Assembly (NCBI GenBank): GCA_965216305.1
Contig: OZ244144.1
Location: 2,036,248 to 2,100,247 of the forward strand
Direction of reading: 5' to 3'
Source of the DNA: Gammaproteobacteria bacterium
GTDB taxonomy: Bacteria > Pseudomonadota > Gammaproteobacteria > Ga0077536
DNA length: 64,000 bases
Numbering within the stretch: position 1 is the stretch's first letter; every line of letters begins with the position of its first letter. Position numbers and translations under genes: made by a program. The notes beneath the pieces are model-generated. The model made no database searches. It was given only the letters and a program-made list of their open reading frames with translations, and had not been told where the DNA came from. Shown one piece after another: positions 31,492 through 48,624 of the stretch.

Positions 31492-32385
31492 ATGTACGAA
31501 TCGTTCTTCGGTTTCACGGAAGCGCCGTTCAGTTTGAACCCTGATCCGGGGTTCCTGTACCTCGGGCGGGATCACAGCAAAGCCCTGAGCATGTTGGAAT
31601 TCGGCCTTGCGTCGGAATCCGGGATCACTGTCATTACTGGCGCAATTGGTTCAGGGAAAACTACGCTAGTACGTCAGTTGCTCAATGCCATGCCGTCCGA
31701 CCGCACCGTGGGACTCATCAGCAACACCCATAAGTCGTTCGGCGAGCTGATTCACTGGATTTCCCTTGCCTTTGATCTTGAGCATGAGGGCCGGGACAAG
31801 GTCTCGCTGTACAACCAGTTTGTGAAATTTATGATCGAGGAATACAGCCGTGGAAAACGCGTTGTCTTAATTGTCGATGAAGCGCAAAACCTCGACGCAG
31901 AAACAATTGAAGAACTGCGCGTGATTTCGAACATCAACGCTGACAAAGACCTCGTGCTACAGCTGGTCCTAGTAGGCCAGCCGGAGCTAAAGGAAATATT
32001 GAGCGGTGCGAACCTGGTCCAGTTCGTTCAGCGAATTTCCGCGTATTATCATTTGAAGCCGTTAACACGTGAAGAGACGCACAACTACATAAAACATCGC
32101 GTCGGTGTTGCGGGGCCCCGGCGTAATCCGTTTCGGAAAAAGGCTATGGACATGATCTTCGAGGCTGCCGGTGGCGTGCCGAGGTTGATCAACACTTTTT
32201 GTCATTTAGGACTGACATATTGTTTCGCCGAGGGGCGTAAGACTGTGAACGAAGACATCATGCGGGAGATTGTTAGCGATCGCGAAGAGCATAGCTTGTT
32301 CGAGAGCAAGGCGGCTTCGCAAACTGATGTCGACGAACGTGGGCTGCACCACTTGGCTGTAACACCATTAGAGAAAATACTATGA
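31492..32385 (+). CDS. PEP-CTERM/XrtA-locus secretion ATPase (GspA/ExeA-like AAA ATPase).
   Basis: 297 aa with Walker A GAIGSGKTT and Walker B VLIVDEAQNL. GspA-like architecture characteristic of the first gene of exosortase-A EPS loci. Confidence 0.75.
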   Translation: MYESFFGFTEAPFSLNPDPGFLYLGRDHSKALSMLEFGLASESGITVITGAIGSGKTTLVRQLLNAMPSDRTVGLISNTHKSFGELIHWISLAFDLEHEGRDKVSLYNQFVKFMIEEYSRGKRVVLIVDEAQNLDAETIEELRVISNINADKDLVLQLVLVGQPELKEILSGANLVQFVQRISAYYHLKPLTREETHNYIKHRVGVAGPRRNPFRKKAMDMIFEAAGGVPRLINTFCHLGLTYCFAEGRKTVNEDIMREIVSDREEHSLFESKAASQTDVDERGLHHLAVTPLEKIL

Positions 32386-32948
32386 ATCGACGCATTACAG
32401 TTTTGCCTATCTTCTTGTACGCGCTTTTGGGTGCAATGGCACCTCCAACCGCATACTCAGATTCATCCGACTACAAGATCAAGGCAGCGGATTTGTTGCT
32501 TGTTTCTGTGTGGAAGGAAGAAGACTTGCAACTCGAAACCATAGTGCGCCCAGACGGTAAATTCTCATTCCCCCTCGCCGGCGAAATTCGAGCTCAGGGA
32601 CGGACGATAAGTGAGGTCCAAGAATCCGTGACCGAAGCGATTAAACAATACATCCCCGATCCGGTTGTTACGGTGATATTACGCCAAAGTCTGGGTAATC
32701 GAGTTTTCGTGTTAGGGCAGGTAAATCGGCCGGGCGAATTTCCGCTAAGCCAAGACATGGATGTATTGCAGGCGCTTGCTCTTGGTGGCGGGCTTGCGAC
32801 ATTCGCCGATAGGAAAGACATCAAAATCCTAAGGCGAACCGAGAACGGGCAATCGTCAATCCCCTTTAACTATAAGAGTGCTATTAACGGCAGCGATCTT
32901 GGGCAGAATATTTTATTGGAACCAGGCGATATCGTCGTCGTGCCTTAG
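32382..32948 (+). CDS. Periplasmic polysaccharide export protein (Wza-like Poly_export/SLBB, PEP-CTERM-locus EpsE-like).
   Basis: 188 aa with signal peptide. Poly_export motif (Y.I..GD.L.V.V....L......V..DG.I..P..G.I...G.T..E) followed by one SLBB-like segment. ATGA overlap with the upstream gene. Confidence 0.8.
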   Translation: MNRRITVLPIFLYALLGAMAPPTAYSDSSDYKIKAADLLLVSVWKEEDLQLETIVRPDGKFSFPLAGEIRAQGRTISEVQESVTEAIKQYIPDPVVTVILRQSLGNRVFVLGQVNRPGEFPLSQDMDVLQALALGGGLATFADRKDIKILRRTENGQSSIPFNYKSAINGSDLGQNILLEPGDIVVVP

Positions 32949-32983
32949 CCGCTGAGCGATCGGATCGTCCAGATACGTTTCTA

Positions 32984-34201
32984 GTGAAAAACCCAGCGCT
33001 TATCGTCGTGATGATGCTTTCCGCGAGCATCCCAGCGCGTGCGGATTTTTCCGTTCGCCCGTTCGTGTCTGAGGAACTTTTAGTTAATGACAACAGGAGA
33101 GTTCGCGCAGCAGGCGGCCCTACAGTAATAGGATCTTTATCCACGGCCCAACTCGCGCTTAACTACTCCCGACCGACTTGGTTCGCGACGGCGATCCCGC
33201 GCGCGAAAATTTCAAGGTTTACTGAAGACTCTTCACTAAATAGCGAAGATTATCTTCTAATAGGAGCGACCGAAAAACGCTTTGAGTACCTAACAATCGC
33301 GCTGAATACACAGGCTAGCAGTGTGTCAGCTCTAACCACGGAATTGGCGGATATCGGTCTCGTCTTAGAAAACAAACAGCAGAATAGATTCAGTATTTCG
33401 CCTAGGGTGACGTATTTTGCAACTCCGACCTTGCAACTTGGTTTCTCGCTCAATTACGTAGATGTTGAGTTCCAAAACGCCGAAAATACCGCATTAATCG
33501 ACTATTCCAGCTATTCCTTCGGCCCTGACGTACAGTACCAATTTAGTGAGAATATCAGCTTCAATAGCAACTTCTCGGTTTCTGAATTCAAAACCCCGGA
33601 CACGCAAAGAAAGACGTTCAGTAAGTCCGTTAACGTAGGGGCTACGTATCGGTACTCCGAGAAGTTATTCGTGTCAGCGTCTCTCGGAGGGCGTTTTAAT
33701 AATATCGAGCAAGGGTTTCAAGCACTCGTCCCGAATCCTGATTTCCCAAACGGACCGGTTTTTGTCATTCAGGATCTCAAACAGGAAGACACGACGAAAG
33801 GGATCCTCGCGAACGTCCTGGTCGAAAGGACTATCGAGCGAGGTACCGTTTCCGCGTCGTATTCGCGCTTTGTATCGCCGGCGAGTATTGGTATTCAGCA
33901 GGTCAACGAAGAGTGGGGGCTGAATTTTGAATATGAGATGTCTCCTCGATGGACTAGCGAAATGGAATTTGAGTTCGCAAATCTCAAGGCCGATGGCGAC
34001 GATAGAACAGACCAGAATGAGCGAATACGGTTACGTCTAAAAACCGTCTACGCGTTCAGCCGTAACTGGTATTTTGACGCGGGATATACATTACGTCGGG
34101 TGAAATTTATGAGCGGCGGAACCCAGAGCAGCGGCAGCAAAGCAAAATCTAACGAAGTTTTCATTGCGCTTCGATATCAAGGCGATAATCTGCGCTTTTG
34201 A
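32984..34201 (+). CDS. Predicted outer-membrane beta-barrel protein of the EPS locus (EpsL-like).
   Basis: Signal peptide then alternating amphipathic beta-strand pattern. Aromatic-rich, with C-terminal ...NLRF (terminal Phe typical of OMPs). Conserved position between exporter and chain-length determinant. Confidence 0.55.
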   Translation: MKNPALIVVMMLSASIPARADFSVRPFVSEELLVNDNRRVRAAGGPTVIGSLSTAQLALNYSRPTWFATAIPRAKISRFTEDSSLNSEDYLLIGATEKRFEYLTIALNTQASSVSALTTELADIGLVLENKQQNRFSISPRVTYFATPTLQLGFSLNYVDVEFQNAENTALIDYSSYSFGPDVQYQFSENISFNSNFSVSEFKTPDTQRKTFSKSVNVGATYRYSEKLFVSASLGGRFNNIEQGFQALVPNPDFPNGPVFVIQDLKQEDTTKGILANVLVERTIERGTVSASYSRFVSPASIGIQQVNEEWGLNFEYEMSPRWTSEMEFEFANLKADGDDRTDQNERIRLRLKTVYAFSRNWYFDAGYTLRRVKFMSGGTQSSGSKAKSNEVFIALRYQGDNLRF

Positions 34202-35988
34202 GTTTTACGCCTGCGGAAAAACTTTCCCTTTACAAGAATATGAGTGATTTGGACCGGGTAATGGAAACGCTACAAACTGAAATGACCTTTCGAGATGCGG
34301 TAGACAAGCTCGGCCGTAGGTACCGGATGCTGGTTGCGGTAGTCATTTCGCTGATGCTGCTTACGTTCGCAATCGCCGTATTGCTACCTTCAATCTATCG
34401 AAGTCAGGCGACAATATTAATCGAACAGCAGGAAATTCCAGCTGAATTAGTTCGTTCAACGGTAACGAGTTTCGCAAGCCAGCGCATTCAAACTATCAGT
34501 CAACGCGTAATGACCTCGAGCAATCTTTCCGAAATAATCGAGAAATACGGTCTTTACGAAGAAGAACGCCGCCGAGATCCGCTCGAAGTTATCATCGATG
34601 GGATGCGTCGGAGTATCGTCCTTGAAATGATCAGTGCAGACGTCGTCGATCCACGAAGTGGTCGACCAACAGAGGCAACGATTGCATTCCAGTTGTCTTA
34701 CGATAGTGAATCTCCTGTCTTGGCGCAAAAAGTTACGAACGAACTAGTGTCTCTTTATCTCAATGAGAATCTTAAGTCGCGCCAGGCGTCTGCGACCGAA
34801 ACCTCCTCCTTTCTGGCCGATGAGTCATCTCGATTAGCGTCACGTCTCGCGGAACTAGAGCAGGAAATATCGACCTTCAAACAGGAGAACCTGGAAAAGC
34901 TACCCCAGTTGGAAGGCATTAATAGAGAGTTAATGAACCGAGCGGACCTTGAGATTACTGACATCGACCGGCGCCTCGACGTTGCCACCCAGCAAGAAAT
35001 TTACTTAAGTGCTCAGCTGTCAGAACTGCAACCTCATCAGGTGATTTTTGTCGGAGGAAGTATCAGTCCGGCAGAGCGGTTGCGTAGTATGGAAACGGAG
35101 TTGACCGCAGCAGAAGCTTCTTATGGTGACTCGCACCCGGACGTCCGTAAATTACGCGCCCAAGTCGAAGCAGTGCGAGCAGACGTCGAGCCGTCGGAAG
35201 CCCGCAATATCTACAGCGTGAAATTGGAAGCGGCGAAGCGGGAGCTTGCTGAATTATTGGAACGCTACAATCCAGATCATCCGGACGTCGCGAAAAGCCG
35301 GAAAAAGGTCGAAAATTTAGAATTGAAATATTTGTCGCTGGCCGGTAAAGAAGACGACAAACCGAATAATCCGGCCTACATAAACATACTCGCTCGTTTG
35401 GATGCAACGAAGGCGGAAATCAGAACGCTGCGTGCCCAGCGAGAAAAAATAAATAATAAGCGTGACGAAATGACGCAGCGCTTGATAGAAACTCCTCTGA
35501 TCGAACAACAATACAAAGGAATAATACGGGAATACGATAATACGCTGCTTAAGTACCAGGAAATTACAGCGAAACAAATGGAAGCTCAGTTGTCGGAGAA
35601 TCTTGAGACTGAACGCAAAGGCGAAAAATTCACGCTAATCGAACCGCCATTGCTCCCGGAAGCCCCCTCTGAACCAAATCGAATGGCGATACTTCTAATA
35701 GGATTAATCGTCTCAATCGGATCTGGCGTTGGATCGGTTTTTGCCGCAGAGGGACTTGACAATAAAGTCCGAGGAAGAAACGCCGTTCAAGAAATATTTT
35801 CGGTGCCCCCGCTGGCAATTATTCCCGATATGTCTCGGCTGGATCACCGTGCGAGGAACGGCAAGCTAGTTGTTAGTCTTGTTTTGACCGCAGTGGTGCT
35901 TGGCGCCATGACGCTTGCCGCCATTCATGTATTTATGATGCCGTTGGATGTGTTTTGGTACGTTTTAATGAGAAAGCTATCGCTCTAG
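34198..35988 (+). CDS. Polysaccharide chain-length determinant protein (Wzz/GumC-like, PEP-CTERM-locus subfamily).
   Basis: N-terminal TM (MLVAVVISLMLLTFAIAVLL). Long coiled-coil periplasmic domain. C-terminal TM (MAILLIGLIVSIGSGVG). Probable true start is ATG 34240; 34198 is a TTG overlapping the upstream stop. Confidence 0.8.
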   Translation: MSFTPAEKLSLYKNMSDLDRVMETLQTEMTFRDAVDKLGRRYRMLVAVVISLMLLTFAIAVLLPSIYRSQATILIEQQEIPAELVRSTVTSFASQRIQTISQRVMTSSNLSEIIEKYGLYEEERRRDPLEVIIDGMRRSIVLEMISADVVDPRSGRPTEATIAFQLSYDSESPVLAQKVTNELVSLYLNENLKSRQASATETSSFLADESSRLASRLAELEQEISTFKQENLEKLPQLEGINRELMNRADLEITDIDRRLDVATQQEIYLSAQLSELQPHQVIFVGGSISPAERLRSMETELTAAEASYGDSHPDVRKLRAQVEAVRADVEPSEARNIYSVKLEAAKRELAELLERYNPDHPDVAKSRKKVENLELKYLSLAGKEDDKPNNPAYINILARLDATKAEIRTLRAQREKINNKRDEMTQRLIETPLIEQQYKGIIREYDNTLLKYQEITAKQMEAQLSENLETERKGEKFTLIEPPLLPEAPSEPNRMAILLIGLIVSIGSGVGSVFAAEGLDNKVRGRNAVQEIFSVPPLAIIPDMSRLDHRARNGKLVVSLVLTAVVLGAMTLAAIHVFMMPLDVFWYVLMRKLSL

Positions 35989-36004
35989 AACAGTGGACAC
36001 TTAA

Positions 36005-36826
36005 ATGGAACGAATCAAACAAGCTTTGGAACGAGCTAAAAGCGAGAACAAGCAAAAGCCCAGTTTTCGCGGCCAGCAACCGGCGGCGAGTGATGCTAAT
36101 GCAGGCTCGGTCAGCGCGTTCAATGAGAAAGTGCAATATTCTGACACTGCGGTTATTGAAATTGACAAAAAGCTCCTAAAGAAAAACTATATTCTGCCCG
36201 AGACAAATGGAGATGAAGCAGCAACGGCATATAAAATCCTAAGGACGCAGATTGAACATCGCCTCACCGCTAATGGGTGGAATACCCTGGCAATTACAAG
36301 TCCGGGTTTAGATCAGGGCAAAACGCTGACAGCGATTAATTTGTCGATCGCGTTAGCACGGGAGGTCCACCGTACGGTTCTTTTGGTGGATCTGGATTTC
36401 CGCAACCCAAGTATTCATCGTCGACTTGGTCTCAACGTGACCCAAGGCGTTACTGACTATCTCCTTGACGATGTGCCATTGAGCGACCTTCTAATAAACC
36501 CTGGGATTGATCGACTCGTAATTCTACCGACTACTAGAACGATCGCGAACTCGTCTGAGTTGCTGTCGTCGCCGAGAATGATAAACCTCGTTGAGGAACT
36601 GAAATCCCGTTACCCCTCGAGAATAATCGTTTTTGACCTCCCGCCGATATTGATGGCAGACGATGCATTGGCATTTTGCCCTGCGGTGGACTCAACGTTA
36701 CTGGTGATTGAGGAAGGCGCCAATACTAAGGATCAGCTTGTCCGCTGCACCGAAATACTTGGTTCAATCAAACTGATCGGGACCGTACTTAACAAGGCGG
36801 AAGAACGTCAGCCAACATATTACTGA
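36005..36826 (+). CDS. BY-kinase-like ATPase (exopolysaccharide tyrosine autokinase, cytoplasmic partner of the chain-length determinant).
   Basis: MinD/ParA-type deviant Walker A ITSPGLDQGKTLTAINLS. Walker B VLLVDLDFR. C-terminal Tyr pair ...QPTYY. Confidence 0.75.
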   Translation: MERIKQALERAKSENKQKPSFRGQQPAASDANAGSVSAFNEKVQYSDTAVIEIDKKLLKKNYILPETNGDEAATAYKILRTQIEHRLTANGWNTLAITSPGLDQGKTLTAINLSIALAREVHRTVLLVDLDFRNPSIHRRLGLNVTQGVTDYLLDDVPLSDLLINPGIDRLVILPTTRTIANSSELLSSPRMINLVEELKSRYPSRIIVFDLPPILMADDALAFCPAVDSTLLVIEEGANTKDQLVRCTEILGSIKLIGTVLNKAEERQPTYY

Positions 36827-37113: not shown

Positions 37114-38244
37114 ATGAAATCCAAACGATCAGAGCTGCAAGGGAAAATCAAGCTTATGCTCGTTGCGGGCGCGCGGCCGAACTTCATGAAGATTGCACCT
37201 ATTATTAGGGCAATCGAAAAGAGTAAGGATTCATTCGATTATCAGCTAGTGCATACCGGGCAGCATTACGATGAAAAAATGAGCGGCGTGTTTTTCCGGG
37301 GGCTAGGTATACCGGAACCGGATCACAATTTAAACGTTGGCAGCGGAACACACGCTCAACAGACTGCCGCGATCATGATGGCGTTCGAGCCTGTACTTCA
37401 AGCTTACAATCCGGATTACGTACTTGTCGTCGGAGATGTGAACTCAACTCTTGCGTGTTCAATTGTGGCCAAAAAATTGGGCACGAAAGTGGCACATGTC
37501 GAGGCCGGCCTTCGAAGTGGCGACATGAATATGCCCGAGGAGATAAATCGTCTAGTAACTGATTCAATAAGCGATCAATTTTTTGTTACCGAAGAAAGCG
37601 GGATGGAGCATCTGCGCCGGGAGGGTAAATCCGAATCGGCTATTCACCACGTTGGCCATGTGATGATAGACAATCTGCTCTATGAGGTCGCTAAGCTGGA
37701 TAAGCGCGGTTACCAATCGATTCCGCTACTCGACCAGTTGCCGTCAAACGCCCAATACGGCGTAGTAACCCTGCATCGCCCGTCGAATGTTGATGATCAG
37801 AAGGTCCTGGCGCGTATTTTGGAAGCGTTGATTTCAATCAGCAAACGAATCCCGCTCATATTTCCGATTCATCCCCGTACCCGTGCAAATCTTGAGCAAT
37901 TCCAATTAGCCATTCCGCCTGAGATTGTTCTTACGGAACCGCTTCAATACGACGAGTTTTTGCAAGTCTGGCGTGGCGCGACGATCGTTTTAACGGACAG
38001 TGGTGGCTTGCAAGAAGAAACTACCGCTTTAGGCGTCCCGTGCCTCACACTTCGCGAAAACACTGAGCGACCTATAACGGTGGCTGAAGGTTCCAACAAG
38101 ATCGTTGGCACAGACCCTGAGGTGATTGTAAGAGCAGCACTCGCGATCATTGATGGGCCACCTGTTCGTGTACGAAAGCGACCAAAGCTCTGGGACGGCA
38201 AGTCCTCAGAACGAATTTTGCACCTTCTATCTGAGTCTTTGTAG
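37114..38244 (+). CDS. wecB: UDP-N-acetylglucosamine 2-epimerase (non-hydrolysing).
   Basis: Full-length WecB/MnaA-family sequence (…TGQHYD…, HVEAGLRS, …DSGGLQEE…). 376 aa. Confidence 0.9.
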   Translation: MKSKRSELQGKIKLMLVAGARPNFMKIAPIIRAIEKSKDSFDYQLVHTGQHYDEKMSGVFFRGLGIPEPDHNLNVGSGTHAQQTAAIMMAFEPVLQAYNPDYVLVVGDVNSTLACSIVAKKLGTKVAHVEAGLRSGDMNMPEEINRLVTDSISDQFFVTEESGMEHLRREGKSESAIHHVGHVMIDNLLYEVAKLDKRGYQSIPLLDQLPSNAQYGVVTLHRPSNVDDQKVLARILEALISISKRIPLIFPIHPRTRANLEQFQLAIPPEIVLTEPLQYDEFLQVWRGATIVLTDSGGLQEETTALGVPCLTLRENTERPITVAEGSNKIVGTDPEVIVRAALAIIDGPPVRVRKRPKLWDGKSSERILHLLSESL

Positions 38245-38248
38245 AGAA

Positions 38249-39544
38249 ATGCCCGCTGTTACGACCAAAGTAATTGTGGCAATCCTGTTCCTTGTTTTCG
38301 CAGGTGACGGCATAGCCTGGAGCGACATCCATCCTGAGGACTATGGTGCAATAGGTGACGGAATATCTGATGACAGCCGAGCGCTGCAGAGGGCACTCAA
38401 ATTATGCTCAAACAGAGGTGCGGTTTGTAGATTATCTCCCAACAAATCCTATCGAGTTACCCGGCCAATATTTATATGGGGGCAGGCCGACTTAATCGGC
38501 GAGGCTGGAAGTAGCACGCTGATTTTTGATGTTGATGAGGCTCCGTATCTGTTCAACGTAGGTATTAGCGGCAAGAACAATTTGAAACCTCCGTTTTCGG
38601 GATTGATACAAGGGGTAACCTTCAGGATTGTCAGCGGGAAGCGTGGGCGACTCATCTATTTTTGGAGGACTGACGGTGCTCGAGTTCTTGGAAACACATT
38701 TGATCTCGGCTCCTTTGAATATTCTGCAACGTCGTCCGGGAACAATAACAATTGGGTTCGAAACGGTTTTAAAGGATGCGTCCGTAAGAATATCGAGATT
38801 TCCCGCAATACGGTTATCGCATCAGCCGACGCCAAGGGTAACGAAGGAATTGGACTTTCAAACTTTGAGGGCGTATTGATTCGAGAGAACTCCATTCACG
38901 GTGTAGGAGATGACCCGATTGGGATCCATTTCTCTAAGGATGTGCTGATTACGAATAACGCACTAACTAGCGTCGATGGACGGATATTTGTAGGTAATTC
39001 GCGAAATGTTCGCGTTTCTGCCAATTCGCATTCGCGAATTGCGTCTCCGAAGGATCGAAAGTTTCGCAAGGGAATCGGTTTGATTTATATAGGATTCGAG
39101 AAATTTACTAAGCACGAGCACATGGCACCGACTGATATTGTGGTTTCAGAGAATCGCCTGACGTATCCGAAGGGGGCGATTGATGGAGGTGCAGCAATCT
39201 ATCTTTACGCCCCGCGCGGCGCGAAGATCACGGACAACGTAATTATCAATGATTCGCCTAAGGTGAAAGCATCAGCGGTGCACTTGCTGCCGATAGAATT
39301 CAAGCAGGGTTGGAATGATCCGGATCACATCGACTCCGGAAAGACTGCGAAAGTTGGCTCAGTAGAAATTAGCGGCAACTCTAGTCTTGGTAAATATCCA
39401 CTGCGATTTCTGATGACTGGGAATTGCGAGGATTATCGGGGGCCAGTTAGAGTCGCGAATAATGTGGCGCCGCGCTTTCAGTTCTATTGTGCCGGAGTGA
39501 CGCAACAAGATAATACGAGTACCGATCGCGGCGTTCTGCGTTAG
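38249..39544 (+). CDS. Secreted right-handed parallel beta-helix protein (pectate-lyase-superfamily fold; putative EPS glycanase or epimerase).
   Basis: Start trimmed to ATG 38249, just after the wecB stop. Signal peptide MPAVTTKVIVAILFLVFAGDGIAWS. N-terminal motif EDYGAIGDGISDDSRALQRAL typical of the Pectate_lyase_3/beta-helix family. Repeated Asn/Gly-rich beta-helix coils. Confidence 0.65.
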   Translation: MPAVTTKVIVAILFLVFAGDGIAWSDIHPEDYGAIGDGISDDSRALQRALKLCSNRGAVCRLSPNKSYRVTRPIFIWGQADLIGEAGSSTLIFDVDEAPYLFNVGISGKNNLKPPFSGLIQGVTFRIVSGKRGRLIYFWRTDGARVLGNTFDLGSFEYSATSSGNNNNWVRNGFKGCVRKNIEISRNTVIASADAKGNEGIGLSNFEGVLIRENSIHGVGDDPIGIHFSKDVLITNNALTSVDGRIFVGNSRNVRVSANSHSRIASPKDRKFRKGIGLIYIGFEKFTKHEHMAPTDIVVSENRLTYPKGAIDGGAAIYLYAPRGAKITDNVIINDSPKVKASAVHLLPIEFKQGWNDPDHIDSGKTAKVGSVEISGNSSLGKYPLRFLMTGNCEDYRGPVRVANNVAPRFQFYCAGVTQQDNTSTDRGVLR

Positions 39545-39568
39545 GTTTTCTGTTTCAAGATTACACCG

Positions 39569-40816: not shown

Positions 40817-40861
40817 CTGCACCCTCGAGGGGCCTTGAGACCGTAATTACCAAGAGCGAAG

Positions 40862-42244
40862 TTGAAGGCGACTGTACAAATGCGCATTGACTATCACCAA
40901 ATCTCAAGGAACTTGAGTCTTATCTGCTGGGCAGGGTGGTCGCTGTATTCAATTTATTTACTATCTGCCGCAAATTCGAGATCCGACTTATTTTTGACCT
41001 ACTTGCTTTATCTGATGTTGAGCGGGTTCATGGTGTGGATTTCTAGGAAGGATCTGCTTTCCCCCATAGGATTGTTTACGCTAGCCGGGTTCATGGCGTT
41101 CGGATCTAACATTCCCTTCATAAATGCCGATAGTTATTTCGGATTTGGCATCAGCGAGAAAACCCTTACTAAAGTACTTGTTCTATTTTTAGTAGCGTAC
41201 AGTGCGTTCATATTGGGTACGGTTAGCCGGGTAAATCGCATTTTTCCATTCAAGCGCTTGATTGGGTCAGATCATGGCAGCTTGTCTGCCTCGATTCCCA
41301 TTTATGGTCTCTTGCTAGGAATGGTTTTGGTGGCGGGCTTCATCAGGGCTAAATATCACCTTGGCGAGGCAGGTATTCAGCCAGCCATCAGGTATGCCGG
41401 TTATTTTCAGTACTTACTCTATGATGGCTTGTTAGTATTTTGCGGGTGGTTTCTGGCCTCATCCATTAGGCGCGGAACGGTTTTTATCCTTCTTGCTTTA
41501 TCGCTTCTTGTTAGCTTGGCGATTGTGCAAGCGTATCTCGGTTGGCGAGGAGGGATCTTCCAAGTATTTATATTGGCAGTAGGTATATTTTGGTATCAAA
41601 GCTCCAACAGCCGGACCGTCTCGAGCGCTTCTATGAATTGGGTGCTGATATTAGTCGTGCTCGCAGGAACAATTACAAACTTGGGTAATCAGGTGAGGTC
41701 TGAGCGCTTGGGCGGGCAGCGTACGTTTGCGGAGAATAGGGTTGAGTTCGCCGAGAAGGTCGTAGTGAGGACGCAAGGAACCTCTCGGTTGGCCGCGGTT
41801 GTGAATCATTTCGGAGATTTGACGTGGGTGAACAATTACAAAATTGTTGAACTCTACAAGTCCGGTACCACGTCAACTGTTTACGTTGATAGAGCTATTC
41901 ATGGCGTCGGTAAGAACCAGTCTCACAGTGTCGGTGCGTCAGGACCTGGAGGGCCCTATGTGGCACTTGGGATGCTTGGGATTTTCGGCGCGTACTACTT
42001 CCTCGGCGTGTTTTATCGGGGTTGTTACGAGACGATATTGGCATCGCGTAATAAGGTGTTCGCCACAGTTCTTTACTCCTATTTAATGTACGTTCTGTTC
42101 CAGCTGTTGTCTGGAAATTTTGGCTTGAATTCTGTTAAAAAAATTGGTGCGGTACTCGCACTCACCGTCGTCCTCAAACTGATTGTGAGTCGGCTCGGGG
42201 TTAGCGACGCACCGCAATCCCTGAGGTTGTTCAGAAAGCCATGA
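40862..42244 (+). CDS. Wzy-like polysaccharide polymerase (O-antigen ligase/polymerase-type membrane protein).
   Basis: 460 aa polytopic membrane protein with a large hydrophilic loop (residues ~270-340) between TM blocks. Low sequence conservation is expected for Wzy. Confidence 0.5.
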   Translation: MKATVQMRIDYHQISRNLSLICWAGWSLYSIYLLSAANSRSDLFLTYLLYLMLSGFMVWISRKDLLSPIGLFTLAGFMAFGSNIPFINADSYFGFGISEKTLTKVLVLFLVAYSAFILGTVSRVNRIFPFKRLIGSDHGSLSASIPIYGLLLGMVLVAGFIRAKYHLGEAGIQPAIRYAGYFQYLLYDGLLVFCGWFLASSIRRGTVFILLALSLLVSLAIVQAYLGWRGGIFQVFILAVGIFWYQSSNSRTVSSASMNWVLILVVLAGTITNLGNQVRSERLGGQRTFAENRVEFAEKVVVRTQGTSRLAAVVNHFGDLTWVNNYKIVELYKSGTTSTVYVDRAIHGVGKNQSHSVGASGPGGPYVALGMLGIFGAYYFLGVFYRGCYETILASRNKVFATVLYSYLMYVLFQLLSGNFGLNSVKKIGAVLALTVVLKLIVSRLGVSDAPQSLRLFRKP

Positions 42245-42298
42245 ACCGGATCACTCAAGCAAATACCAAAGCCGAATTCCCTTCTTTTGGCTAGCACA

Positions 42299-42826
42299 AT
42301 GCGTAAATTGATATTTAGAGCTCGGCGCTTGTGGAAGATTCGCAATAACAGCTACCCGTCGTACGTACCAGCAACATCGTTTGTGCAAACGTCGTCATCG
42401 TTTGTCGAACCGGCAAAACTGTCCTTAGGCGAGCACGTTTACATTGGCGCCGAATGTTTTATTAATTGCAAAGGTGGCGTCGCAATTGGTGACGGTTGCA
42501 TGGTATCGGCGTACGTCGTGATCCTTTCTGAGGATCATGATTTTCGTGAGGTGGTCCGCATGCCCTTCAACCGCGGTATGCGGTTTGATCCTGTAACGAT
42601 CGAAGCTGGTGTCTGGCTTGGGATTCGATCGATGATTCTGCCTGGAACTATTATCGGGCAAGGTGCAATCGTCGCCGCAGGTTCGGTGGTAACAAAGAAC
42701 GTAGAGCAGGGCACCATCGTTGCAGGAAATCCCGCGAGGGTCGTAGGCAAGCGGATCGATGGCTGGCGTTCAGTCCTCGATGCCAAACAGTACTACCTCG
42801 CCGGGCATGCGTTAATTGGCGGATAG
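42299..42826 (+). CDS. Hexapeptide-repeat (left-handed beta-helix) acyl/acetyltransferase, probable polysaccharide O-acetyltransferase.
   Basis: LbH repeats (IGAECFINCKGGVAIGDGCMVSAYVVI...VWLGIRSMILPGTIIGQGAIVAAGSVV). Trimmed to ATG 42299. Similar to the WcaF/maltose-O-acetyltransferase type. Confidence 0.8.
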   Translation: MRKLIFRARRLWKIRNNSYPSYVPATSFVQTSSSFVEPAKLSLGEHVYIGAECFINCKGGVAIGDGCMVSAYVVILSEDHDFREVVRMPFNRGMRFDPVTIEAGVWLGIRSMILPGTIIGQGAIVAAGSVVTKNVEQGTIVAGNPARVVGKRIDGWRSVLDAKQYYLAGHALIGG

Positions 42827-42862
42827 CCGTATAGCCCGCAGATAGACCGGATGAATTGAGAA

Positions 42863-43825
42863 GTGGAGAAAGGACCGATATTTGTCGTTGGGCCGCCTCG
42901 TAGCGGCACGCACCTGATGCGTTATTGCTTGAGTCAGCATCCAAATGTCTATATTGGCCCAGAGTCTAACTTTTTCCAGGCGATCTATGGCAGCCGCACC
43001 GTCGTCCCAGATTCTCTAATTAAATCAAACAGCGGATTGATTCTGGAGATGCTGTTCGCCAGCGGCGACCCAAGCATGTCTGAATTTGAACCGAACAAAG
43101 ATGCGATCGAGAAATCGATCAAGATGCAGGCCAATAATTATCGAGAACTCTCCCGGATAATTTTTAGTAGTTTCGCAATTTACAAGCAGAAGCCACGATG
43201 GGGCGAGAAAACGCCGCTGCATCTATATTATCTGGATAAGCTGTTCGATTACTTCCCGAACGCAAGAGTCATTTGTATGCGGCGTGATCCGAAAAACATA
43301 ATCGCGTCCTACATAAAAAGTAGTCACATGCCTAATAGATTGTCATTCGCTATGGCTGAAGTCAGGCATTGCTGGAAAATTATGCAGCGTATTACTGACA
43401 AAAGATTACAAATCGTCGAGTACGAAGATCTGCTGGCAAACCCGTCCGCTACATTGCGAATGGTTTGTGATTTTTTGGATGAGGAATTTAAGGAGGCCAT
43501 GCTCAACCCAAAAATGCGGGATTCTTCATACAGTGGCGGGATCATGGAGTTCGACGAATCGATAAAAATCGAACAGGAACCCGGTGCAAACGAGAAATGG
43601 AAACGCGTATTGAGCGAAGAAGAGGCTCGCAGCGTCATGACATGGGTGAACGTGGGCGCGATATCGCTGTTTTCTCCCGAAGTTAGTTGGCTGCTAATTG
43701 GGCGCGCGATTATTGCGTCGTGGGTCTATCGTATGCGATTAATGAAGTCAAGAATGGGGCTTTTCCACTGGAAGCGCGTCGTGCAAGTAAGTCGGCGGCG
43801 CGCCGACTATCCGCAAGCGGATTAG
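42863..43825 (+). CDS. Sulfotransferase family protein (PAPS-dependent).
   Basis: 5'-PSB loop VVGPPRSGTHLM and 3'-PB motif RDPKNIIASY. About 320 aa, typical of the Sulfotransfer_3-like family. Hydrophobic C-terminal tail. Confidence 0.75.
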   Translation: MEKGPIFVVGPPRSGTHLMRYCLSQHPNVYIGPESNFFQAIYGSRTVVPDSLIKSNSGLILEMLFASGDPSMSEFEPNKDAIEKSIKMQANNYRELSRIIFSSFAIYKQKPRWGEKTPLHLYYLDKLFDYFPNARVICMRRDPKNIIASYIKSSHMPNRLSFAMAEVRHCWKIMQRITDKRLQIVEYEDLLANPSATLRMVCDFLDEEFKEAMLNPKMRDSSYSGGIMEFDESIKIEQEPGANEKWKRVLSEEEARSVMTWVNVGAISLFSPEVSWLLIGRAIIASWVYRMRLMKSRMGLFHWKRVVQVSRRRADYPQAD

Positions 43826-43858
43826 CAACCCCAGCACGATGAGGTGTAATTAACACAA

Positions 43859-45106
43859 GTGAATATCTTATTCGTTGTGAACGAGGTGCCCTATCCGCCG
43901 GATAACGGTGTAAAGATCGTCTCCTATAACGCCATGCGAATGATGAGCGAAGCTGGGCACAACGTTAGTATTTGTGTTCTGTGCGAAAAGAGCCCTTCAT
44001 CGATTTCGGATTACGAATCGCTGTGTTCGGAGTTTGGAATCGAAAACAGGTGTATCGAATTCACCGACGAAAGTAAGAAACTGAGAAATATCGTGCGTAC
44101 CGCGTTATGCGGCAAGCTATATTTCATTGAGCGGTTCCGATCACTGTCGTTTCGGGTTGCGCTGGAGGTCTTGGTTGCGAAGTTTGAACCCGATGTTATT
44201 CATTTTGATCTGATCACCTTGTGTCAATACTATGATGTAGCCCCGCTCGGCATCGGAACTGTTGCGTCAATAAACGATTGCTATTCGCTCAAACTTGAGA
44301 ACTCGCTGGCTGCCGGGAATTACTCCGGAGTTGAAGTGCCGTATCGAGTTTGGCAACTTCGGCGGTCCAGAAAGTACGAATCGCAGATGTATCCAAATTT
44401 CGACTTCGTTCATGTGATGAGCGAAGTCGACAGCGGGTACCTCGAAAAGCTAAACCCGAAGATCGAAACGAGAGTTATTCCGAATGGTGTCAGTGCCGAG
44501 TTGTTCAATTTGCCACAGGTGAATAGCGCAAATGTCACAGTACTATTCATTGCTCATCTGGCTGGTGATAATTTGGTGTACTTGGCGAACCTTCTAGACA
44601 AATGTTGGCCGGTTGTCGCTCGTGAATTTCCCCAAAGCGTGTTGCGAATCGTAGGCAAGATTCCAGAGTCTTCACGTCCGCTACAAACGAAATACGAAAA
44701 CGTTGAGGGTGTGCGATTCGCTGGCTACGCCGAGAATCTTGTGGACGCCTACGAAGGATGTGATATCGCAGTTGTTCCCATTAATAAGAGCGGCGGCATT
44801 CTGAATAAGGCTATTGAGGCCATGGCGGCAGGCCTTGCGGTCGTTGGCTTCGACAAATCCTTCGCCGGAATCGCCGGTGCGCGTAGTGGACAACATTACC
44901 TAACCGCTAAAGATTATGAGGGAATAGGAGAGGTCTTGATTGCACTGATTCGAGACCAGAATCGTCGGGACGAGATACGAGCGCAGGCGCGTAAATTTGC
45001 TCGCGATAATTTTTCCTGGAACCAGCGTGTTGAGGCTTACGAGTCGATGTATTGGCAAGCTGCACGACTGTCGATCGAGAAGCGCAGCGGACATGGATCA
45101 ACGTAG
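43859..45106 (+). CDS. Glycosyltransferase family 4 (GT-B, Glycos_transf_1).
   Basis: C-terminal GT4 signature (…EGCDIAVVPINKSGGILNKAIEAMAAGLAVVG…). GTG start. Confidence 0.8.
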   Translation: MNILFVVNEVPYPPDNGVKIVSYNAMRMMSEAGHNVSICVLCEKSPSSISDYESLCSEFGIENRCIEFTDESKKLRNIVRTALCGKLYFIERFRSLSFRVALEVLVAKFEPDVIHFDLITLCQYYDVAPLGIGTVASINDCYSLKLENSLAAGNYSGVEVPYRVWQLRRSRKYESQMYPNFDFVHVMSEVDSGYLEKLNPKIETRVIPNGVSAELFNLPQVNSANVTVLFIAHLAGDNLVYLANLLDKCWPVVAREFPQSVLRIVGKIPESSRPLQTKYENVEGVRFAGYAENLVDAYEGCDIAVVPINKSGGILNKAIEAMAAGLAVVGFDKSFAGIAGARSGQHYLTAKDYEGIGEVLIALIRDQNRRDEIRAQARKFARDNFSWNQRVEAYESMYWQAARLSIEKRSGHGST

Positions 45107-45896
45107 TCAATTTCGAATTCACCTTGAAGCCGCTAAGCGGTTATTCATGGTCAATGCCCTTTCTGGTGTACTACCGCTTTACATCGTTACGGAATATCCG
45201 AAATCTGGCGGAACCTGGATATCTCAGGTTCTTTCGGAATGTTTGGGTATCCCCTTTCCTCGAAACAGGCCACCAAAACTTGAATCCTGCCTAATGCACG
45301 GCCACATGACTTTTTCGCCACTTATGAAAAACGTTGTCGTTGTACAACGCGACGGCAGAGACGTGATGATATCGTGGTATTACCATATGTTGTTTCAGCA
45401 TGATCGAAATACGCAACATCTCGTAGAAAAGACGAGGCAACGCCTAGCATTCCCTGATTTTGAGGATATTGAGGAGAACTTACCGAAGTTTATTGAGTAT
45501 GTTTTCGAGTCGGAGCAGCGATCTCGAAGTCCATTTCATTTCACGTGGAGCCAGTTCGTTGACAGCTGGCACGACAAAGATGTCCCGAAAGTAAGTTATG
45601 AGGAAATGATTGAGGGGCCTGTCCGTGCTGTACAGAACGTGATAGGGCGACTGGGGGTAGATGAAGTTGACGCCGAAACCGTAGCGACGATAGTTGATAA
45701 GTATAGCTTTCAGGCGCAATCACAGCGTGCGCCAGGTCAGGAGGATAAATCTAGTTTTCTCCGGCGTGGAAAGCCCGGTGATTGGAAGAACAAGTTTAAC
45801 CGACGTGCGGCAGAAGTTTTCGATCAACTGGCAGGAACTCAATTGGTCCAACTTGGGTACGAGCCAGATACAAGTTGGGTTAGGAAGCTCCTGTGA
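45093..45896 (+). CDS. Sulfotransferase (Sulfotransfer_1-like, PAPS-dependent).
   Basis: Trimmed to ATG 45093, which overlaps the GT4 end by 14 nt. 5'-PSB motif EYPKSGGTWISQVL. C-terminal RRGKPGDWKNKF matches the canonical RKGxxGDWKNxF sulfotransferase motif. Confidence 0.8.
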   Translation: MDQRSQFRIHLEAAKRLFMVNALSGVLPLYIVTEYPKSGGTWISQVLSECLGIPFPRNRPPKLESCLMHGHMTFSPLMKNVVVVQRDGRDVMISWYYHMLFQHDRNTQHLVEKTRQRLAFPDFEDIEENLPKFIEYVFESEQRSRSPFHFTWSQFVDSWHDKDVPKVSYEEMIEGPVRAVQNVIGRLGVDEVDAETVATIVDKYSFQAQSQRAPGQEDKSSFLRRGKPGDWKNKFNRRAAEVFDQLAGTQLVQLGYEPDTSWVRKLL

Positions 45897-47059
45897 CGTC
45901 TGACGCGAACGGGTACGATTTCTTGCTTAATGGCGCGTCGATAGTCGTCGGTGGCGGCATTCAATCGTGCTCTGCATTCGTTAGATATTTGATCGCCCGC
46001 GGGATTAGTGAACGCTGCTTCTTCGTCGTTTCGGATGAAATACATCAGGAACTATTGAAGTTTGGTGTGGATATTGCCTCGATGGGCGGGGTAGTTACGA
46101 TTGATGCGCCCTCGAAGCATCTCGCGACGAGACGTTTGCTCGCGGACGTAGAGCGAAAGTGTAAACCTGCGGTGGTGTTCACGTTCTTCGGTCCGTCTTA
46201 TGTCAAGTTTCGAGCTAAGCATATATGCGGTGTGGCTGACGGGTGGGTGACGCACTCCACTCCTTTGGCGTTTAAAACACTCCGAGGTTGGTCAGCGAAA
46301 TTGCGTATGCTTGCCGCGCTAATCTACAAAGCATTCCATTTTCGAAGAGCGGACTACTGGATAGTAGAGCACGACTGTGCGAAGCAAGGCCTTATCCGTC
46401 GGCTGAGGCTGGCGCCTGGTAAAATATCGGTCGTGCCAAATAATTGTGCACCCCATTACGTCGCCTCGACTGAACGGACTGTGCTCTTGGAGGAAACAGC
46501 CAAGTGCCGAATTCTGGTATTCGGGGCTTACTATCCGAATAAGCGGTTAGAAATCATTCCCCTGGTTGCAAAGGCCTTAAGATCGCTCGATCAAGAATTC
46601 TCGTTTGAATTCATCATCACTGTTAAACCTGGTCTGCCTATTTGCGATGAACTTGCTACGAGCTTGAAAAGGATCGGACTGAATCACAGCTTCAAAAATA
46701 TCGGACCGATTCCATTACGAGACGGGCCGGCGCTATACAGGTCGTGCGACGTCGTGTTTCACCCTTCGGTATTGGAAACGTTTTCGGCGGTATACCCGGA
46801 AGCAATGGCGATGGCTGTACCGATCGTTACCAGTGATCTAGATTTCGCTCGATCGATTTGCGGAGAAGGGGCACTTTATTTCAATCCAAACGATCCTGGC
46901 GATGCGGCAAAGAAGATTCACGAAGTTCACACAAATGTGAATGCTCGAAAGCGACTAATCGAGCGAGCGAGAAAGCGCCAATCTGATATGCCTACCATTG
47001 ATCAGAACCACAAGTCACTCGTAGACATCATTAGCGGTATCGTGGACCGTCACTCCTAA
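45893..47059 (+). CDS. Glycosyltransferase family 4.
   Basis: 388 aa. GT4 E-x7-E region (ETFSAVYPEAMAMAVPIVTSD). Overlaps neighbours by 4 and 1 nt, suggesting translational coupling. Confidence 0.75.
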   Translation: MTSDANGYDFLLNGASIVVGGGIQSCSAFVRYLIARGISERCFFVVSDEIHQELLKFGVDIASMGGVVTIDAPSKHLATRRLLADVERKCKPAVVFTFFGPSYVKFRAKHICGVADGWVTHSTPLAFKTLRGWSAKLRMLAALIYKAFHFRRADYWIVEHDCAKQGLIRRLRLAPGKISVVPNNCAPHYVASTERTVLLEETAKCRILVFGAYYPNKRLEIIPLVAKALRSLDQEFSFEFIITVKPGLPICDELATSLKRIGLNHSFKNIGPIPLRDGPALYRSCDVVFHPSVLETFSAVYPEAMAMAVPIVTSDLDFARSICGEGALYFNPNDPGDAAKKIHEVHTNVNARKRLIERARKRQSDMPTIDQNHKSLVDIISGIVDRHS

Positions 47060-48621
47060 TGAATACGCAAGATCTGCCAAACGTTCCCTTACCGGGCATT
47101 GATTATTACCGTGGCCAAGGTGATTTACGGATTAAGGTTGCCGTTTTTCTCAATGTATCGCGAATTGAAGGTCTATATTTCGAACGCGAGAAAAGTCTTA
47201 GGCTACTCTGGAACTATTGGCGCGAAATTGGCTTTAAGGCAGTTCTGACGAAGATCCGTTCGAGACACGCGGAGCGAGCGCGGAATGTCAAGTTTCTTTC
47301 GGTGGGAGTCGGCTACGTCGAGGAAGCGGATAGTGGCAGTCAGTTCGCGCGTGAACTGGTGATGTTCGTAGCACCTCAGCACCCGCGGTTATTGGATTCG
47401 ATTGTATTGTGCGAGGCGTTGGTGCATCGCATTACAAACGATCACGATCTCCCAGAAAAAGCCGGTGTGCTGATTCACGACGAGATTGATTCGAGTGTGT
47501 CGTCTGCGCTGGAACCTTTGTGTGGTTGGGACAAAATTTCCCAAACGCCGATTCCAGCCATCGATTGGTCGTTGATTTCGCGAATGTTACATGACCACAA
47601 TTATTCGGCCGCAAAAAGATATCGGAATAACGCTCGGGATTACCACGATATCTTACCCGCCAGCTTCCAACGGAAGACTTCGGGGAATGTAAAATACGCG
47701 ACTCTGTTCGGGTACGGAAATTACGCGAAGTCCGTTATTCTCGCAAACCTGCCTGACAGCTTAGTAGTGACACGCATACACGAACTGGATCCGATTCAGA
47801 TACCTCACCGGGAACGGCATGTAACATGGGATACGAGTCCAGGCCCGCGCACTAATGACGCTAATCGCGTATTTTTTACTGCCGGTTACCATCACACGCA
47901 CACGGATCAGGCGGTTATCTGCTTACGCTCGGGAGGCGACGCAGTAATCGAGAAACCGCTTGTGGTCAATGAACAGCAACTCTCCGACCTACTAGATGGC
48001 TTGCAGGCGTCCCGGGGACGCGCATTTGCGTGCTTCCAAAAGCGTTACAGTATATTTAACCAGCACGCGCGAGAGGATTTGGAGGTAGCCGAGGGCGAGC
48101 CGGTTTCGTACCACTGTATTGTTTACGAAGTTCCATTGCCGCCGTTGCACTGGTATCGGTGGCCCTCTTCGAGATCCAGACTCATATCCAATGGCTGCCA
48201 TTGGATTGATCACGCGCTGTATCTAAATGGATTCCCCGCGTTCGAAACCATTAGTGTTTTTCAGAGTTCTTCCTCAGAGATAAATGTGTCTGTTGAGTTT
48301 TCTAATGGAGCGTTCTTTACGATGATTCTTACAGACAAAGGGAGTTCGCGGATTGGTATGCAGGACTATGTTGAATTAAGGGCGAACGGAAAGACAGTCA
48401 AAATTGCGAATAGCACTAGCTATCAGAGCGAAAGCTCTGATCGAATTATCAGGAAATGTCGTGCTAATAAAATGAAAAGTTACGCAAATATGTATCGAAC
48501 GATTGGCCAAAGAATTTTAGGCGATGGCCCAGGAGACTCGCTTGAATCCGTCGTTAGTAGTTGCAAACTGACCGTTGAGTTGGATAAAAAAGCCGGCGGG
48601 ACTCAAGGGGTGCCCTCGTGA
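47059..48621 (+). CDS. Two-domain protein: uncharacterized N-terminal domain (~200 aa) fused to a Gfo/Idh/MocA-family NAD(P)-dependent oxidoreductase.
   Basis: C-terminal half has Rossmann GxGxxA (LFGYGNYAKS), the EKP motif (AVIEKPL) and a GCHWIDHALYL-type C-terminal-domain motif of the Gfo/Idh/MocA family. N-terminal 200 aa has no motif I recognise. Confidence 0.65.
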   Translation: MNTQDLPNVPLPGIDYYRGQGDLRIKVAVFLNVSRIEGLYFEREKSLRLLWNYWREIGFKAVLTKIRSRHAERARNVKFLSVGVGYVEEADSGSQFARELVMFVAPQHPRLLDSIVLCEALVHRITNDHDLPEKAGVLIHDEIDSSVSSALEPLCGWDKISQTPIPAIDWSLISRMLHDHNYSAAKRYRNNARDYHDILPASFQRKTSGNVKYATLFGYGNYAKSVILANLPDSLVVTRIHELDPIQIPHRERHVTWDTSPGPRTNDANRVFFTAGYHHTHTDQAVICLRSGGDAVIEKPLVVNEQQLSDLLDGLQASRGRAFACFQKRYSIFNQHAREDLEVAEGEPVSYHCIVYEVPLPPLHWYRWPSSRSRLISNGCHWIDHALYLNGFPAFETISVFQSSSSEINVSVEFSNGAFFTMILTDKGSSRIGMQDYVELRANGKTVKIANSTSYQSESSDRIIRKCRANKMKSYANMYRTIGQRILGDGPGDSLESVVSSCKLTVELDKKAGGTQGVPS

Positions 48622-48624
48622 AAA

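Follow-up and report, generated by a model that had tools for sequence, protein, structure and literature searches.

A low-GC segment at an XrtD exosortase locus of a gammaproteobacterium, very probably one allele of an exchangeable exopolysaccharide cassette

We have analyzed a stretch of 64,000 nucleotides (nt) from the genome of a gammaproteobacterium (contig OZ244144.1 of assembly GCA_965216305.1, positions 2,036,248 to 2,100,247; hereafter the window), an uncultured, probably sulfur-oxidizing marine organism. The window contains an exopolysaccharide (EPS) locus of the Wzx/Wzy type, arranged around a fusion of the XrtD (VPLPA-CTERM) exosortase with EpsI. The bat/MoxR operon, apbE and manC form a left flank of native composition, and beyond manC lies a block of genes with lower G+C content (GC). 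Our principal conclusion is that this low-GC segment is very probably one allele of a hypervariable, replaceable EPS cassette that is exchanged by homologous recombination. The features of the locus are collected in Table 1.

The variable region encodes a Polysacc_synt (Wzx) protein, two GT4 glycosyltransferases, two sulfotransferases and an acetyltransferase. The membrane protein adjoining the flippase matched no family, and its assignment as a putative Wzy polymerase was inferred from topology and position. The 520-amino-acid protein that ends the block gave no Pfam or NCBIfam match, and a weak match in PDB sequences to a Gfo/Idh/MocA protein (E=0.0024). The secreted beta-helix protein is possibly a polymer-modifying or depolymerizing enzyme. 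The called starts of its gene and of that for sulfotransferase 2 lie ~95-110 nt inside the genes before them (38150-38248 and 44997-45106). The true start of the beta-helix gene is probably an internal ATG near 38249, which is followed by a signal-peptide-like segment, and sulfotransferase 2 probably begins at an internal methionine downstream of the overlap with GT4 glycosyltransferase a. From the gene content we infer that this allele would direct synthesis of an acetylated, sulfated heteropolysaccharide containing N-acetylhexosamine. As a secondary possibility the polymer may be sulfated and glycosaminoglycan-like, since two sulfotransferases, wecB, a heparinase II/III-like protein and Gfo/Idh/MocA oxidoreductases occur together.

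Table 1. Genes and intergenic features of the EPS locus (window coordinates)
Feature	Position	Strand	Evidence and remarks
manC (GDP-mannose pyrophosphorylase/phosphomannose isomerase)	29837..31294	+	Pfam NTP_transferase + MannoseP_isomer; GC3 0.76; left homology arm
Intergenic region	31295..31491	+	Holds left breakpoint 31298 and conserved promoter/operator-like element
PEP-CTERM-system-type AAA ATPase (ExeA/GspA-like)	31492..32385	+	TIGR03015 288.9 bits, cut-off 324.5; GC3 0.61; junction gene
Wza-like polysaccharide export protein	32382..32948	+	Pfam Poly_export + SLBB; TIGR03027 143.7 bits, cut-off 180
Outer-membrane beta-barrel protein	32984..34201	+	Weak porin/beta-barrel Pfam matches
Polysaccharide chain-length determinant (Wzc N-terminal-like)	34198..35988	+	TIGR03007 232.9 bits, cut-off 278.85
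Tyrosine autokinase (Wzc C-terminal-like)	36005..36826	+	TIGR03018 169.2 bits, cut-off 230.65
wecB, non-hydrolysing UDP-GlcNAc 2-epimerase	37114..38244	+	TIGR00236 313.5 bits, above cut-off
Secreted right-handed beta-helix protein (pectate-lyase fold)	38150..39544	+	Pfam Beta_helix, Pect-lyase_RHGA_epim
Wzx-type flippase	39569..40816	+	Pfam Polysacc_synt; ~10 hydrophobic segments
Polytopic membrane protein, putative Wzy-type polymerase	40862..42244	+	At least 8 hydrophobic segments; adjoins wzx
Hexapeptide-repeat O-acetyltransferase (WcaF/WbbJ-like)	42287..42826	+	Family matches
Sulfotransferase 1	42863..43825	+	Pfam Sulfotransfer_3, E=6e-33
GT4 glycosyltransferase a	43859..45106	+	TIGR03087-like, below cut-off
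Sulfotransferase 2	44997..45896	+	Pfam Sulfotransfer_1, E=3e-20
GT4 glycosyltransferase b	45893..47059	+	Family matches
520-amino-acid protein, divergent Gfo/Idh/MocA-like oxidoreductase domain	47059..48621	+	VIEKPL (EKP motif); last gene of lowest-GC block
Intergenic gap, 337 bp	48622..48958	.	GC steps from ~0.49 to ~0.54; terminator-like hairpin 48904-48921
Bi-domain oxidoreductase (zinc alcohol dehydrogenase + Gfo/Idh/MocA)	48959..51100	+	GC3 0.59; within swapped tract; not in alternative allele
Heparinase II/III-like protein	51100..52770	+	Pfam Hepar_II_III_C, Hepar_II_III_N; holds right breakpoint 52704
WcaI-like GT4 glycosyltransferase c (GT4c)	52905..54161	+	GC3 0.59; 99 % identical between two strains; part of right homology arm
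XrtD exosortase fused to EpsI	54158..55732	+	TIGR04152 599.1 bits, cut-off 400; GC3 0.74
WecA-like initiating transferase, gmd, fcl, PrsT-like tetratricopeptide-repeat (TPR) lipoprotein	55739..62147	+	Conserved right-hand genes; PrsT-like lipoprotein TIGR02917 310.4 bits, cut-off 312.2

The original prediction, made by reading the sequence, held that the core of the locus has lower GC than its flanks. For the analysis of composition the core comprised the 15 genes of 31492-48621, all co-directional, the intermediate group the three genes of 48959-54161, and the flank set 30 genes. Measured in 1-kb bins, GC drops from 0.59-0.67 at 15-31 kb to 0.47-0.51 at 32-49 kb, and rises to 0.52-0.57 at 49-55 kb and then to 0.57-0.64. 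Least-squares change points lie at ~31.2 kb and ~49.0 kb. The core genes have GC of 0.474-0.520, and at third codon positions (GC3) 0.477-0.611, with a mean of 0.528 ± 0.032; GC3 of the flank genes is 0.678-0.797, with a mean of 0.740 and a standard deviation of 0.031. The two GC3 distributions are disjoint (Mann-Whitney U=0, p=6.5e-8), the core mean lying 6.8 flank standard deviations below that of the flanks. An index like the codon adaptation index, calculated with the flank genes as reference, is 0.684 for the flanks and 0.469 for the core, also with U=0. Synonymous codon usage differs between core and flank (chi2=1392, df 41), and the dinucleotide signature distance (x1000) is 72-102 between core and flank compared with 27-34 between the flanks. 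The difference in composition is real and large, as had been claimed.

Could the low GC be an effect of protein composition? At four-fold degenerate sites the flanks have GC of 0.80-0.83, the intermediate genes 0.63 and the core 0.55, and the soluble enzymes of the core are as low at third positions as its membrane proteins. Amino-acid or membrane-protein composition is therefore rejected as the cause. It had also been predicted that composition recovers stepwise from 48.9 to 57.4 kb. Two steps in GC3 are clearly seen, from 0.53 to 0.59 at 48.6-48.96 kb, giving values of 0.587-0.601 for the three intermediate genes, and from 0.59 to 0.74 at the start of xrtD (54158). However, native values are reached there and not at 57.4 kb, GC3 being 0.73-0.78 from xrtD rightward, equal to that of the left flank. 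The total GC of xrtD and wecA remains at 0.55-0.57 (to 57.4 kb) because of the first and second codon positions of these membrane proteins, yet their GC3 is native at 0.74. In the flank statistics the region 17425-18841 is represented by the plus-strand genes for an XdhC-like protein (17603-18598) and a MocA-like cytidylyltransferase (18600-19178). The minus-strand open reading frames found there were rejected as spurious, with GC2 up to 0.70 and no family; the outcome is the same with either set.

An exact-protein look-up identified a 92.5-kb metagenome contig, SRR23272297_3932 (loci L001 and L003), that encodes ManC and XrtD identical to those of the window, with a different set of genes between them. 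We call this the alternative allele. The adjacent run accessions SRR23272282 and SRR23272297 contain both alleles. The flanking DNA of the two is 98-100 % identical, on the left over a stretch that begins at 19.8 kb or earlier and ends with the stop codon of manC, through which the match is perfect. Identity collapses 3 nt past this codon, so that the left breakpoint is at 31298. The right breakpoint is at 52704, 66 nt before the stop codon of the heparinase-like gene; identity within this gene is 80-90 % up to 52704 and ~99.9 % beyond, and the right flank has 11 mismatches over the 10.25 kb of 52705-62957. Between the breakpoints the shared homologous genes are 65-84 % identical in nucleotide sequence, and the middle is non-homologous and unalignable. 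The left junction is also spanned by an independent contig (L002) that carries the window's own allele at 99.4 % identity, and a mis-join at this point is thereby ruled out. For the right junction, an exact look-up of the heparinase-like protein gave no match, probably because of a different called start.

The gene content of the two alleles differs considerably. The alternative allele is without the bi-domain oxidoreductase, and without homologs of the window's beta-helix protein or Wzx flippase. It has genes for a 598-amino-acid protein, a pyruvyl transferase, a Pfam Wzy_C protein, a GT2 and a GT1; where the window has sulfotransferases and an acetyltransferase, the alternative allele has the pyruvyl transferase and GT2. 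The barrel, exporter, chain-length determinant, kinase and WecB proteins are present in both, with identities of 28-67 %, the highest value being that of the exporter (67 % in amino acids). The core of the alternative allele is equally AT-rich, with GC of 0.47-0.50.

This comparison bears out the proposal that a variable core has been replaced, and the likeness to serotype switching is strengthened by two sister species (below) in which common flanks again enclose different cores. The predicted boundaries require some revision. An extent of 31492-48621 describes the composition well, but the replaced tract is 31298-52704, which adds the bi-domain oxidoreductase and most of the heparinase-like gene. 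The flanks had been characterized as conserved nucleotide-sugar genes; this is true of the left arm, manC, but the right arm is the GT4c/xrtD block and not gmd and fcl. A core of glycosyltransferases and sulfotransferases is indeed present, but it also includes the exporter, barrel, chain-length determinant, tyrosine kinase and wecB.

The divergence of the flanks between window and alternative allele is asymmetric. The left flank (19837-31294, bat operon) has a patchy identity of 95-100 %, and the right has 11 differences in 10 kb. The pattern suggests that there may be extra recombination tracts in the left flank.

Searches that started from ATPase homologs and from the ManC 90 % cluster led to further loci, all with a common architecture, in which bat, apbE and manC are followed by ATPase, exporter, barrel, chain-length determinant, kinase and wecB. 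Two sister species provide comparisons of strains. The flanks of species B are ~83 % identical to the window in nucleotide sequence, and three of its loci with one allele (L027 = L028 = L031) can be set against L029; the flanks of species C are ~73-75 % identical to the window, and here L021 is compared with L023. In each species there are strains with flanks that are 96.6-97.4 % identical and cores that are unrelated. The left crossover in species B and C falls within the 3′-terminal 100-300 nt of the ATPase gene, and all loci of the species B and C type have a step in GC at this gene. Among more distant relatives reached through XrtD, L004 and L006-L009 have a GC trough upstream of xrtD, and L012 has none within 10 kb of xrtD. 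Orthologs of the bi-domain oxidoreductase (60-63 %) lie upstream of xrtD in L005, L008, L009 and L012. In L006 a homolog of sulfotransferase 2 (53 %) stands beside a homolog of GT4 glycosyltransferase b (46 %), and the two genes thus travel as a shared module.

How old are the alleles? Identity matrices were constructed for seven alleles in four species. For MoxR and ManC, identity is 99-100 % among strains of a species and 76-98 % from one species to another. By contrast, the export and chain-length proteins of the seven alleles are 23-81 % identical, and within a species identity is 59-67 % for the exporter, 24-28 % for the barrel, 43-59 % for the chain-length determinant, 51-65 % for the kinase and 58-62 % for WecB. 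The cassette proteins are as diverged within species as between species, or more so. The barrel is the most allele-specific of the cassette genes, that of the window being 23-30 % identical in amino acids to those of the other six alleles; corresponding values for the window are 44-52 % for the chain-length determinant, 50-61 % for the kinase and 54-64 % for WecB. One family of alleles (L027, L021 and L026) spans three species, the closest barrel pair is that of the alternative allele and L023, and the alleles of the window and L029 are singletons. Judged by these matrices, the alleles appear to be older than the species and incongruent with their phylogeny.

The ATPase occupies the junction, and its ancestry differs between strains. 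That of the window is 78-82 % identical in amino acids to every other copy, with GC3 of 0.61, while that of the alternative allele is 94 % identical to the species B copy, with GC3 of 0.72. In the window strain the ATPase has therefore come with the cassette, which fits a crossover at the manC stop codon.

Strains that carry the same allele show the reverse pattern of divergence, with cores 5-25 times less diverged than flanks. Between the window and L002 the divergence is 0.93 % in the flank and 0.19 % in the core (p=4e-5), and the last difference of flank type is at 31297. Between L027 and L031 it is 1.46 % in the flank and 0.06 % in the core (p=2.5e-36), with the last flank difference at 12363, in the 3′ part of the ATPase gene. 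Identical cassettes on diverged backgrounds argue for recent transfer of the cassette within species by way of the same junctions.

Scans for mobile elements were negative, as the original prediction had anticipated. No tRNA was found in the window, no Rfam family passed the gathering threshold, and Pfam and other family searches found no transposase, integrase or phage gene among window open reading frames of at least 150 amino acids. The intergenic gaps within the segment are of 337 bp or less. Direct and inverted repeats over 30.8-53.3 kb were limited to chance-level matches of 16-32 nt. An integrative genomic island would be recognized by an integrase or transposase, by a tRNA or att site as target and by flanking direct repeats; none of these was seen in the scans.

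A conserved element does lie upstream of the cassette. About 70-100 bp around 31369-31441 are conserved in all alleles and in at least four species, in contrast to the nearby intergenic DNA, which cannot be aligned. The motifs AAACTGTGTGCGGTGCCGCATT and GATGATAAACTTTTCAAATCATT are conserved in eight loci from at least four species, and GATGATAAACTTTTCAAATCATT contains the inverted repeat ATGAT-N11-ATCAT. The element is probably the promoter or operator of the locus. A scan for promoter and terminator consensus sequences gave counts at or below those expected from shuffled sequence, and the ops/JUMPStart core GGCGGTAG matched once, inside a gene and at chance level.

These observations lead us to the following mechanism. 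Whole cassettes of ~19-21 kb (roughly 21 kb for the window tract) swap between strains by homologous recombination, each carrying an exporter, outer-membrane barrel, chain-length determinant, tyrosine kinase, wecB, flippase, polymerase and tailoring enzymes. In the window strain the crossovers lie in conserved DNA, on the left at the manC stop codon (31298) and on the right close to where the heparinase-like gene ends (52704). Other pairs of alleles have their left crossover within the 3′-terminal part of the ATPase gene, and mobile elements take no part. The cassettes would belong to an old pool common to several species, moving between related hosts faster than they ameliorate and holding the composition of a ~49 % GC genome whatever the GC of the host. 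Diversifying or frequency-dependent selection at the cell surface, for example by phages or grazers, would presumably keep the diversity.

Several points weigh against this interpretation. GT4c (52905-54161) has intermediate GC, yet it falls to the right of the tract over which the two strains differ, and so composition and current polymorphism do not coincide exactly. A donor search of 5.8e9 proteins gave no donor, the best matches other than self being 68 % for WecB and 30 % for the barrel, and transfer between species is deduced from incongruent similarity, no near-identical cassette having been seen in another species. The sequences used for comparison all come from metagenome assemblies, and a role of phages or grazers in selection has been assumed.

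Why should the cassettes be low in GC? Nearly all core genes of the seven alleles have GC3 of 0.47-0.58 (the exporter of L026, at 0.62, is an exception), while GC3 of the hosts ranges from 0.57 to 0.84 across the loci compared. Since every allele is low in every host examined, low GC marks the cassette pool and not one recent arrival from a low-GC source. Nor does gene function demand AT-richness. In L008, L009 and L012 the oxidoreductase, heparinase-like and GT4c genes have orthologs of native GC (0.64-0.69), and the ATPase exists in both versions, its GC3 following recombination history (0.61 where imported, 0.72-0.76 where host-like). In their treatment of Salmonella O-antigen clusters, Reeves et al. 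(PMC3715488) argued likewise of the rml genes that function does not require low GC. The GC of the core at the three codon positions is 54.3 / 40.1 / 52.5. The regressions reported by Lawrence and Ochman in 1997 give 57.0 / 39.9 / 50.6 at equilibrium for a genome of 49 % GC; set against that expectation, the values indicate that the core is little ameliorated and near such an equilibrium. The Thiogranum-like, XrtD-bearing relatives L015-L019, with GC of ~0.45-0.53 throughout, could be a reservoir of cassettes, but identity of their proteins to those of the window is no more than 39-51 % where the two can be compared. On balance we favor, with some reserve, a trans-species pool that circulates faster than it ameliorates as the explanation of the low GC.

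Low GC might instead have arisen in place. Non-homologous alleles, being unable to recombine with one another, would escape GC-biased gene conversion or efficient selection of codons and drift towards an AT-biased equilibrium set by mutation, in which case low GC would follow from hypervariability and not from foreign origin. This would account for its presence in every allele and host, for the gradation of GC3 in the recombining junction genes (0.61-0.76 in the ATPase, 0.59 in the intermediate module) and for the failure to find a donor, and Reeves et al. remark of wzx and wzy that their low GC 'needs explanation' (PMC3715488). However, a process specific to the host should scale with host composition, and core GC3 stays near 0.50 with no visible relation to host GC3 over the range given above. 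Moreover, the dinucleotide signature departs from that of the flanks, the first and second codon positions are shifted too, as for a genome of ~49 % GC, and the identical cassettes on diverged backgrounds show that cassettes move. We regard an origin in place as unlikely. A related proposal is that ~49 % GC is a stable, self-maintained state of a trans-species 'supergene' pool and not a foreign leftover, possibly through exclusion from GC-biased gene conversion or through selected AT-richness (e.g., silencer-based regulation). We think this distinctly doubtful; if it were true, the recombination regime and not the donor genome would set the composition of the cassette. Selection on function has also been considered, AT-rich or rare codons serving to slow the translation of membrane proteins, to hold expression low or to attract a xenogeneic silencer. 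It is true that in polysaccharide loci wzx and wzy commonly have the lowest GC of any gene (PMC3715488), and that the whole cassette can be read as one operon on a single strand, with a conserved element upstream. Yet the soluble enzymes (wecB, the kinase, the sulfotransferases and the GT4s) equal wzx and wzy in this respect or fall below them, with GC3 of 0.48-0.56 against 0.54-0.55, and the native-GC orthologs of the module genes and the two versions of the ATPase are at odds with such selection, which we consider improbable.

Atypical composition, codon usage and dinucleotide signature, together with sharp edges, are what a single recent acquisition from a distant low-GC donor as a mobile-element genomic island would leave. 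Such an event is very improbable given the negative scans for tRNA, integrase, transposase and direct repeats, breakpoints that lie within or at the ends of conserved genes, a position and architecture kept in at least four species, each with low-GC alleles, and cassette proteins whose relatives are other gammaproteobacterial exosortase-locus proteins. An artefact of assembly or binning, in which a foreign contig has been joined, might be suspected because the source is an uncultured genome and the shift in composition is abrupt. We give this almost no credence, as L002 crosses the left junction and the succession of manC, ATPase, cassette and xrtD recurs in at least eight independent assemblies (ENA, JGI, NCBI, Logan, Tara).

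Exchange of whole cassettes by flanking recombination has close parallels in the O-antigen (rfb) and group-1 capsule (K) loci of Enterobacterales and Pseudomonas aeruginosa. These too have a non-homologous center between near-identical flanks, GC of the center below that of the genome, wzx, wzy, glycosyltransferases and tailoring genes in the variable part, a gradient of GC and divergence in the junction genes, exchange by recombination between homologous flanks with no mobile element involved, and alleles far older than the species. Conserved flanks, a low-GC variable center, graded junctions and old alleles are documented for O-antigen and capsule loci (PMC3715488, PMC7305143), and in Salmonella O-antigen clusters the junction genes are graded in GC and divergence in the same way (PMC3715488). 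The present locus has the attributes of this allelic-replacement class in its flanks, its variable-gene content (the Wzy of the window being assigned by topology and position only), its low and graded GC and the incongruence of its alleles. It differs in that the host is an uncultured environmental organism (contigs coming from marine, Tara and other metagenomes) and in being tied to the XrtD exosortase, and it lacks a detectable JUMPStart/ops element. A further difference is that the export and chain-length machinery varies with the cassette and is extremely divergent (identity of 23-53 % for the barrel and 43-63 % for the chain-length determinant), whereas K loci have wza/wzb/wzc as a conserved block.

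In repertoire and order the genes match the XrtA/PEP-CTERM EPS loci (the TIGR03015/03027/03007/03018 set and PrsT), sharing with them the ExeA-like ATPase, Wza-like exporter, chain-length determinant, tyrosine kinase, exosortase-EpsI fusion and PrsT-like TPR lipoprotein. Here, however, the exosortase is XrtD, of the VPLPA-CTERM type, and it scores above the cut-off for that class (Table 1). The four machinery proteins and PrsT all fall below the curated cut-offs of the XrtA system and outside its equivalogs; by these scores the machinery proteins are read as homologs of the XrtA set and not as XrtA-system equivalogs. A candidate substrate of XrtD is encoded on the minus strand at 13920-14582, 17 kb from the locus. 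This predicted secreted protein of 220 amino acids has a signal peptide and a VPLPA-CTERM-like sorting signal, with C-terminal IPIPPA, a transmembrane helix and RR. Its gene has native GC, and its sole family match is a weak one to the flocculation PEP-CTERM protein PepA (24 bits, cut-off 80). Compared with tRNA-linked, integrase-borne genomic islands, the segment is alike in atypical GC, codon usage and dinucleotides and in its sharp boundaries, but without a tRNA, integrase, insertion sequence or direct repeat it represents allelic replacement at a fixed locus and not insertion. A literature search found no account of within-species cassette polymorphism at exosortase loci, which is weak evidence of absence; searches on XrtD/VPLPA-CTERM gave nothing relevant, and one on exosortase, GC content and horizontal transfer gave a single unrelated paper.

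The architecture as such is known from O-antigen and capsule loci and would not surprise a specialist in surface polysaccharides. What this case adds is the setting, a serotype-switching architecture at an XrtD-exosortase locus in an uncultured environmental gammaproteobacterial clade, beyond the cultured pathogens, and the swapped unit is unusual in including the whole export machinery. Natural populations are seen to hold many deeply divergent and actively exchanged alleles for surface polymers, of which at least seven have been compared in full. The exact junctions and the conserved upstream element might serve as anchors for typing or for recovery of alleles from metagenomes. A data set of many hosts, with GC3 of 0.57-0.84 and one composition of the pool, is well suited to asking what makes cassettes of this kind AT-rich.

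A scan of metagenomes with a conserved 21-mer returned seven contigs. Four of them (L032, L033, L036 and L038) are AT-rich and match no reference locus. The short contigs L034 (1-1109) and L037 have the conserved element together with an ATPase gene, which in L034 is 98 % identical to that of L027, and at the 3′ end of this gene they part from each of the seven reference alleles. This hints that they may represent further alleles.

Sulfotransferase genes occur in four of the seven alleles (window 42863-45896; L023 from 20242; L027 from 21238; L029 from 19939), and this suggests that sulfated EPS may be common in the clade. Some individual loci show signs of decay. In L027 (17496-18443) wecB is fragmented, leaving a remnant of 107 amino acids, and other strains share the same allele; in L028 (14625-16368) an indel splits the chain-length determinant into 490 and 97 amino acids. 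These broken genes could be either pseudogenization of the cassette or assembly errors. The locus in L025 (8900-16100; ENA ERZ21829562 ctg258009l) has collapsed, with few genes left before xrtD, and carries a PhdYeFM/PIN toxin-antitoxin pair between manC and the ATPase gene and an IS21 IstB directly after the ATPase gene.

Elsewhere in the window there is a mild dip in GC at 9982-11868 (0.54; GC3 0.68-0.70), far weaker than the EPS trough, where two MlaC paralogs and MlaD are encoded beside MlaE and MlaF.

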